A DNA stretch of 58,632 nucleotides from Escherichia coli (GTDB lineage: Bacteria; Pseudomonadota; Gammaproteobacteria; Enterobacterales; Enterobacteriaceae): the NCBI RefSeq assembly GCF_003334765.1, contig NZ_QOWT01000025.1; one strand, given 5' to 3'. Positions 57,725 through 57,857 of this stretch are shown piece after piece (position 1 is the first letter of the stretch; each line of letters opens with the position of its first letter). Made by a program: the position numbers and the translations under genes. A model generated the notes under the pieces. That model was not told where the DNA came from, searched no databases, and saw nothing but the letters and a program-made list of their open reading frames with translations.

Positions 57725-57857
57725 ACGCCGTTCTCAACGGGGTGCCACGCAAACGCGTGCGCTGAGAAAATACCCGTCGAACCTGATCCGGATAACGCCG
57801 GCGAAGGGATTTGAGGCTCCTTCTCAAGTCCTTTGCCACTCTTTTTTGAGGTGCAAA
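57725..57857 (+). promoter_or_regulatory. sroA: TPP (THI-box) riboswitch in the thiB leader; region corresponds to the SroA sRNA
   Basis: Conserved THI-element blocks read directly: GGGGTGCC (57739-57746), GCTGAGA (57761-57767), ACCC, GAACCTGATCCGGATAACGCCGGCGAAGGGA (57779-57809); expression platform runs to the GAGG Shine-Dalgarno and GTG start of thiB. Confidence 0.85.

Follow-up and report, generated by a model that had tools for sequence, protein, structure and literature searches.

An intact thiB TPP riboswitch and SroA source upstream of an IS30-interrupted thiB gene in Escherichia coli

What is encoded in the short spacer between sgrR and thiB of an Escherichia coli strain in which thiB itself appears to be broken? 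The question is raised by a 58,632-nt stretch of E. coli DNA (NCBI RefSeq assembly GCF_003334765.1, contig NZ_QOWT01000025.1; hereafter, the window), in which an earlier note, made from the letters alone, had placed a THI-box riboswitch, doubling as the source of the small RNA SroA, at 57725–57857, directly upstream of thiB. Almost certainly, this is the 5' leader of the operon for the thiamine/TPP ABC importer, thiBPQ, and it carries the thiB (tbpA) TPP riboswitch, a translational switch. The thiB element is one of the three textbook TPP riboswitches of E. coli, and the one found here is that element itself, not a relative: it is well studied, ordinary and intact.

The whole window was scanned with the covariance models of Rfam 15 at their gathering thresholds, which yielded eight matches. 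Among these is the TPP family, RF00059, matched over its full length (model positions 1–105 of 105) at 57728–57827 on the plus strand, with a score of 66.1 bits against a gathering threshold of 54.3 and an E-value of 8.2e-11 for both strands of the 58.6-kb window (4.9e-13 when the local stretch alone is searched). RefSeq agrees, annotating a TPP riboswitch at the equivalent positions of the closely related E. coli genome BS74R-D (NZ_CP063332.1), and the family assignment made in the earlier note is thereby confirmed. The parts of the aptamer are the following:

57728–57827, plus strand: RF00059 TPP riboswitch (covariance match and RefSeq annotation in BS74R-D)
57733–57815, plus strand: aptamer proper, from P1 to P1
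57733–57737 with 57811–57815, plus strand: P1 (CUCAA with UUGAG)
57738–57743 with 57770–57776, plus strand: P2
57744–57748 with 57757–57762, plus strand: P3
57782–57784 with 57805–57807, plus strand: P4
57788–57791 with 57798–57801, plus strand: P5

In the RF00059 alignment, the consensus blocks are exact (GGGGUGC, GCUGAGA, ACCC, GAACCUGAU, the CCGG...CCGG stem of P5 and CG.AGGGA), in keeping with the earlier claim that all conserved blocks of the aptamer are present. The same holds for the ligand pocket in the cmscan alignment, where CUGAGA in J3-2 and ACCUGAUC.GG.UAA..CC.GCG.AGGGA in the P4/P5 arm are all exact. All 22 pairs in P1–P5, as read off the alignment, are Watson-Crick, P1 closes the junction with the P2/P3 arm and the P4/P5 arm, and the sole deviation from the consensus is the absence of the optional P3a insert. 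The match is located in the same-strand 5' leader of a thiamine transport gene, 30 nt upstream of the thiB GTG. The bounds given earlier are good to within a few bases, 57725 preceding the transcription start (57730) by 5 nt and P1 by 8 nt, and 57857 being the last base before the GTG. Two further candidates in this region were discarded, namely, a MIR8139 match at 57803–57836 (17.5 bits against a gathering threshold of 90, E 0.41), which is a chance match to the antisequestering hairpin described below, and a 40-aa minus-strand open reading frame at 57717–57839, antisense to the aptamer, which is without any support.

The thiB riboswitch of K-12 occupies the same locus, in the order sgrR, leader, thiB, thiP, thiQ, with the same +1, aptamer, linker, Shine-Dalgarno (SD) sequence and GTG. 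A three-way alignment of the window, K-12 and EC4, a strain with an intact thiB, contains no internal gaps; between the window and K-12, 160 of the 163 intergenic bases are identical, with no indels. The three differences are located at 57703, upstream of the -10 box, and at 57752–57753 in the terminal loop of P3, such that the transcripts differ in two P3-loop bases only. At these positions, the window has AA (AAAC) and K-12 has GU (GUAC), and the position in the loop predicts no effect of the AA allele on the fold. Of the 5,426 complete E. coli genomes, 5,399 contain the 163-nt intergenic region, annotated as 'riboswitch' in each record listed, and the allele in the window is common, with 1,705 complete genomes at least 99% identical to it. 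Compared with strains that have an intact thiB, such as EC4 and four further 100% matches, the leader is unchanged. What does distinguish this strain from K-12 is the downstream gene, thiB being interrupted here by IS30.

Because the leader differs from that of K-12 at three positions only, what has been found in K-12 for TPP binding, sequestration of the RBS and the antisequestering stem transfers directly. By analogy with the published, nearly identical K-12 transcript, this leader would be expected to bind the ligand; the Kswitch of the K-12 thiB riboswitch for TPP is about 0.36 uM (in EC-117; PMC8609307). As an RNA element, the leader is of little significance, being annotated automatically by genome pipelines and having had its mechanism dissected in three recent papers.

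Work by others on the K-12 leader has established that it binds TPP, that translation is repressed, that RNA polymerase pauses and that the antisequestering stem forms. Reporter assays, toeprinting and coupled transcription-translation document the TPP-dependent repression of translation (Grondin et al. 2024, PMC11487190). The thiB promoter itself is not regulated by TPP; translational fusions are repressed 2.3–3.2-fold and transcriptional lacZ fusions 1.6–3.9-fold, and the 30S toeprint at C144 falls about 2.2-fold with TPP (PMC11487190). Regulation is abolished by G35C in the TPP binding site, G121C kills the SD such that expression is lost, U130A kills the GUG, and TPP is sensed more efficiently during than after transcription (PMC11487190). 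RNA polymerase pauses at 83, 104, 117 and 136, TPP is sensed between 104 and 117, and past 136 an anti-P1 stem forms and the affinity drops about 30-fold, limiting TPP sensing (Chauvier et al. 2021, PMC8609307).

Berman et al. 2023 (PMC10578472) also describe the regulation of thiB as translational, with a local 'sequestering stem' that occludes the RBS and with linker nucleotides that invade the 3' strand of P1 to form an 'antisequestering stem'. According to the same study, mutations shift the switch towards OFF or ON, depending on the helix that they favour, both stems are supported by mutagenesis and SHAPE-Seq, the TPP response is abolished in a mutant with a weakened RBS hairpin, and single-round in vitro transcription yields full-length RNA only, bicyclomycin being without effect. 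The antisequestering stem has been demonstrated experimentally for K-12 both in this study and in PMC8609307. The numbering of the P1 3' strand in PMC10578472 (85–89) is not in exact register with 57811–57815 when the offset is used that suits the other two strands.

To these experiments, the present analysis adds membership in the covariance model, the competing helices with their energies, the conservation of the leader and the anatomy of the insertion. The elements of the expression platform in the window are these:

57848–57851, plus strand: Shine-Dalgarno sequence GAGG, identified from the sequence, with 57850 equivalent to the base changed in G121C
57831–57858, plus strand: RBS sequestering hairpin, OFF (CUUUGC 57831–57836 with GCAAAG 57853–57858; CUC 57839–57841 with GAG 57848–57850)
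57804–57834, plus strand: antisequestering (anti-P1) stem, ON (57804–57816 with 57822–57834, loop CUCCU)

Translation from the thiB GTG at 57858–57860 gives the ThiB signal peptide and the mature N-terminus. The sequestering hairpin, at −11.6 kcal/mol, extends over the SD to the first base of the GTG and is chosen in folds with the aptamer enforced. The antisequestering stem consists of 13 consecutive standard pairs and, as an isolated hairpin, has an energy between −12.8 kcal/mol (10–11 bp) and −15.5 kcal/mol (13 bp); the unconstrained minimum-energy fold pairs the P1 3' strand with the linker in a hairpin of 10 bp, and downstream of it a second, small hairpin covers the SD. Both structures use CCUUU (57830–57834), such that the helix over the SD and start is mutually exclusive with a pairing tied to the state of P1. 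Moreover, no intrinsic terminator was found in the leader, as expected of a translational platform. The translational control that the earlier note had read from the GAGG/GTG start is borne out by this competition of helices and, in K-12, is experimentally established.

Opening the region 57846–57862 costs 11.8 kcal/mol in the OFF state and about 6 kcal/mol in the ON state (6.0–6.1 kcal/mol, with 6.6 kcal/mol for the unconstrained ensemble and 6.0–6.9 kcal/mol for the two together), because the freed CCUUU can extend the antisequestering stem. The per-nucleotide accessibility of the SD barely separates the two states (0.20 when the aptamer is imposed on the fold, 0.25 when the antisequestering stem is). 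Folding predicts the local RBS hairpin for either state, and the opening energy of the whole region alone tells them apart. This weak thermodynamic separation agrees with the modest, 2–4-fold regulation and with a kinetic, co-transcriptional switch. A different OFF sequestrator was also considered, in which UCUCAAG in the linker (57822–57828) forms seven pairs with UUUGAGG in the SD region (57845–57851), by way of a repeated UUUGAGG; at −30.2 vs −37.6, it is 7.4 kcal/mol worse than the local hairpin and differs from the published model, and was ruled out.

Taken with the K-12 experiments, these helices suggest the following course of events. Transcription would start at 57730, and the aptamer (57733–57815) would fold co-transcriptionally. 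If TPP is bound while RNA polymerase is near the pauses at +104 and +117, P1 would be locked, the linker would stay single-stranded, and the hairpin at 57831–57858 would close over GAGG and the first base of the GTG, lowering 30S binding (OFF). Without TPP, CUCAA in the linker (57823–57827) would invade P1, pairing with its 3' strand and displacing the 5' strand, to give an antisequestering stem of 10–13 bp (57804–57816 with 57822–57834) that would also absorb CCUUU, the 5' side of the RBS hairpin; the RBS would then be cheaper to open and thiB would be translated (ON). The stable folded aptamer, from +1 to about +93, would accumulate as SroA. In this strain, the control element would work unaltered on a product that is a ThiB-IS30 fusion.

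Going by PMC11487190 and PMC10578472, the thiM TPP riboswitch of E. coli resembles thiB in belonging to the aptamer class without the P3a insert and in that TPP represses translation through sequestration of the RBS and start codon, with an alternative of the anti-P1 type. The thiM element is at another locus and has a different expression-platform sequence, whereas thiB has a local stem-loop as its RBS hairpin and switches through a linker that invades P1.

A pattern scan for the aptamer core, with one genome per species, found at least 120 loci in many phyla, the aptamer lying directly upstream of a ThiB homologue in 37 loci among the matches listed. We compared the leader with 25 other Enterobacterales thiB leaders (26 with the window), which are a sample, not a census, and come from Enterobacter, Klebsiella, Citrobacter, Kluyvera, Lelliottia, Siccibacter, Pseudescherichia, Superficieibacter, Pectobacterium, Dickeya, Brenneria, Edwardsiella, Yersinia, Photorhabdus, Morganella, Plesiomonas and Acerihabitans. 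Given that P3 and the linker are too variable in length for a reliable gapped alignment, structural support was derived from folding each sequence separately and from duplex energies with shuffled controls, instead of column-wise covariation.

All 25 leaders contain P1 (CUCAA with UUGAG), a linker of 13–54 nt with a CUCAA-like invader at its end, and the block CCUUUGCC...SD...GCAAAGUG followed by a GUG start; in Plesiomonas, the 3' strand of P1 reads GGGAUUGGGG vs GGGAUUUGAG elsewhere. The duplex of the invader with its substrate has energies of −11.5 to −15.9 kcal/mol, compared with means of −5.4 to −9.2 for shuffled invaders, and the observed energy is reached by at most 9 of 200 shuffles in 25 of the 26 leaders, Plesiomonas being the exception (23 of 200). 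The RBS hairpin is present in all 26 leaders, at −8.5 to −12.6 kcal/mol, and its inner arm covaries with the SD variant (CUC/GAG, UCCU/AGGA, CCUU/AAGG, CUCA/UGAG). P3 comes in 24 distinct sequences among the 26 leaders, 9–93 nt long, and has a hairpin fold in 24 of them. Because P1, P2, P4, P5 and the outer pairs of the RBS hairpin are nearly invariant among the orthologues, they are uninformative; judging from the sequences compared, evidence on the structure comes from P3, from the inner anti-SD arm and from the invader that is kept in an otherwise variable linker. The comparison across genera lends modest support to the published model, the invader being retained despite a four-fold change in linker length.

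Some thiB riboswitches have expanded P3 arms of 47–93 nt, vs 18 nt in E. coli, with the core and platform kept; these are the leaders of Kluyvera (4022–4245), Dickeya (2275–2490) and Brenneria (2723–2913; all in extracted-locus coordinates).

Is translation the only level at which TPP acts? The repression of transcriptional fusions in K-12 mentioned above, together with the 2.4-fold repression at the transcriptional level that is still seen in the start-codon mutant U130A (PMC11487190), points to a second layer, in which TPP would also lower thiB mRNA, either through Rho-dependent termination in the early coding region when ribosomes are excluded or through RNase E; Rho involvement was proposed earlier, as cited in PMC11487190. 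Such dual control, which we consider a real but somewhat disfavoured possibility, would add a layer to the translational switch, not replace it. It is countered by the full-length transcripts obtained in single-round in vitro transcription and by the failure of bicyclomycin to change repression (PMC10578472), and by our search of 57500–58000, in which no terminator-like site was found on the plus strand. The two studies, PMC11487190 and PMC10578472, disagree on the mRNA-level layer, and the lengths of their constructs differ (4 and 11–12 codons).

With translational control by the thiB riboswitch as the preferred reading, there remains the second part of the earlier claim, that the leader is the source of SroA. 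The features that bear on this are:

57695–57723, plus strand: likely thiBPQ/sroA promoter (-35 TTGCTG 57695–57700, 17-bp spacer, -10 TACACT 57718–57723)
57730, plus strand: first transcribed base (+1) of the thiB leader, where SroA also begins (published numbering; K-12 sroA 5' end 75608)
57730–57822, plus strand: equivalent of SroA (K-12 b4762, 93 nt), from the NC_000913.3 annotation via a gap-free alignment

The position of +1 was derived from the numbering in PMC11487190, which fits no base other than 57730: G35 falls on 57764 in CUGAGA, G121 on 57850 in GAGG and U130 on 57859 in the GTG. The 5' end of K-12 sroA (75608) maps to 57730 too. The putative promoter, directly after the sgrR stop codon (TGA 57692–57694), was assigned by its spacing to the published +1 and by the conserved TACAAT-like box in orthologues, most of which have TACAAT or TAGAAT a similarly short distance upstream of P1; as an assignment from sequence, it is likely. 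A consensus promoter scan of 57500–58000 reported nothing, because the -35 matches the consensus at only three of six positions.

In K-12 MG1655, sroA (b4762) is annotated as an ncRNA at 75516–75608, between thiB (start 75480) and sgrR. It maps without indels to 57730–57822 and is orthologous to this segment in position and sequence, the P3-loop allele being the only difference, which substantiates the description of the leader as a source of SroA. SroA comprises the aptamer and 7 nt of the linker, so that its 3' end (57822), 7 nt past P1, is in a linker that is single-stranded when the aptamer is closed and at the boundary of the loop and 3' arm of the antisequestering hairpin when the aptamer is open. 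An SroA transcript of about 100 nt, with its start common with tbpA, is known in Salmonella, and there is Northern evidence for SroA in E. coli and Salmonella (PMC3511261). SroA (b4762 in E. coli, sYJ20 in Salmonella) has the same start as the thiB mRNA and is made up of the aptamer domain. Given that there is no intrinsic terminator, we infer that SroA is the nuclease-resistant aptamer domain left by processing, decay or premature release, and probably not a separately terminated gene.

One could instead regard SroA as a trans-acting sRNA that is independent of thiB, with the leader kept for its sake despite the broken thiB. Apart from the annotation of sroA as an ncRNA in K-12, this reading draws on Salmonella, where deletion of sYJ20/SroA mildly lowers survival in tigecycline, with complementation by a plasmid copy, and where an sroA deletion mutant is less fit in competitive mouse infection (PMC3511261); according to the same authors, however, the mouse phenotype may stem from altered tbpA expression, and no target has been demonstrated. 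The leader is also 100% identical in the three genomes with IS30 in thiB, described below, and in intact strains, but this identity carries no information if IS30 was inserted recently. The end of SroA at 57822, without a terminator and in the linker just past a very stable fold, is what a decay-resistant fragment would have. A trans-acting role therefore seems unlikely, and we retain the view of SroA as a by-product of the thiB riboswitch.

The 3' end of thiB is indeed disrupted, as the earlier note had observed:

57858–58555, plus strand: 5' fragment of thiB, 698 nt of coding sequence from the GTG on (translation; RefSeq pseudogene 'missing C-terminus')
58556–58632, minus strand: right end of IS30, beside the C-terminus of the transposase, of which only the first 77 bp are inside the window

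Identity to intact thiB stops after 698 nt, at 58555; the first mismatch, 58556, is where the terminal repeat of IS30 begins with TGTAGATTCAATCTGTCAATGCAACA, splitting thiB after codon 232. The rest of the element was read from BS74R-D. The last 1,033 nt of the window are 100% identical to BS74R-D, and the first 49.9 kb are collinear with its chromosome, with 19 mismatches. Sixteen of these mismatches cluster at 973–1512 (540 bp, inside acnB), many spaced in multiples of three, in what looks like a small recombination patch; the window therefore represents a very close relative of BS74R-D, not that exact assembly. RefSeq annotates in BS74R-D, in order, sgrR, the TPP riboswitch, a thiB pseudogene, an IS30-family transposase on the opposite strand, a 3' remnant of thiB and then intact, full-length thiP and thiQ.

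In BS74R-D, the inserted element is 1,221 bp long (4957–6177 of the extracted stretch) and encodes a 383-aa IS30-family transposase antisense to thiB. Its terminal inverted repeats begin TGTAGATTCAAT, with 27 of the 40 terminal bases matching. The size of about 1.2 kb, the repeats, the transposase and a duplicated 2-bp target identify the element as IS30. The junction of thiB and IS30 is found in 3 of the 5,426 complete E. coli genomes, BS74R-D, G3/10 and CAVP776, at the same site, in the same orientation and with identical leaders. The target duplication is a perfect GC in strain G3/10, which is of healthy human origin, whereas its right-hand copy is AC in BS74R-D, of the window lineage (6178–6179 of the extracted stretch), and GT in CAVP776, such that two of the three genomes carry differing transitions in the duplicated dinucleotide. 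The three genomes may go back to one old insertion or reflect a reused hot spot. Between BS74R-D and G3/10, 45 of 6,033 flanking positions differ, and the differences thin out near the IS.

The reading frame of thiB continues 28 codons into IS30, which agrees with the earlier suggestion that the riboswitch drives a truncated or fused product. The fusion has 261 residues, 233 from ThiB and 28 derived from IS30, with the stop 11 nt past the end of the window; codon 233 remains Ala by chance. The C-terminal 94 of the 327 residues of intact ThiB are missing, and the periplasmic binding protein has likely been lost. Behind the insertion, thiP and thiQ are now preceded by a stretch of about 1.1–1.2 kb that is untranslated, runs antisense to the transposase gene and would probably impose a Rho-type polar block on thiPQ. 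This rare allele probably abolishes high-affinity thiamine import.

For the riboswitch, these consequences run contrary to the earlier note, in which the disruption was taken to raise the relevance of the element: with the insertion, less depends on the riboswitch in this strain, and as an RNA element it gains no interest. Rather, the combination of an intact sensor and SroA with a broken cargo amounts to a small natural experiment on a possible role of SroA independent of thiB. With IS30 inserted in thiB and its transposase gene oriented the other way, the riboswitch and promoter drive transcription antisense to the transposase gene. It is conceivable, although highly improbable, that such TPP-gated antisense transcription modulates the IS30 transposase or read-through into thiPQ, or that the leader is kept for a role of SroA independent of thiB. 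Least probable of all, and scarcely credible, is that the leader is a decaying relic, a mere sequence match freed from selection by the inactivation of thiB, which is a pseudogene here, given that the 163-nt leader is without change relative to the intact-thiB strains mentioned above, that the aptamer pairs and conserved blocks are all intact, and that thiP and thiQ are still full-length. With the pairs and blocks intact and the leader unchanged, the RNA of the thiB riboswitch should still fold and sense TPP, the downstream consequence alone having changed.

Other matches of the Rfam scan lie elsewhere in the window. A full-length match to PssrA ('Plasmid-encoded Shigella sRNA A') at 28024–28113 on the minus strand (105.5 bits) takes in the spacer between ftsA and ftsZ along with the 3' end of the former and the opening codons of the latter (ftsA 28093–29355 and ftsZ 26881–28032, as transferred from BS74R-D), and the name of the family is ill-suited to this chromosomal context. 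Two tandem matches to naRNA4 (CssrE, REP-derived) are in the yacG-mutT spacer (21711–21788 and 21828–21904, minus strand), and a match to STnc40 (22308–22377) spans the mutT-secA spacer and the 3' end of secA. SgrS (55745–55971, minus strand, 230.7 bits) and the leu operon leader (49616–49765, plus strand, 145.8 bits) are both intact, and their presence is expected for a K-12-like gene order.
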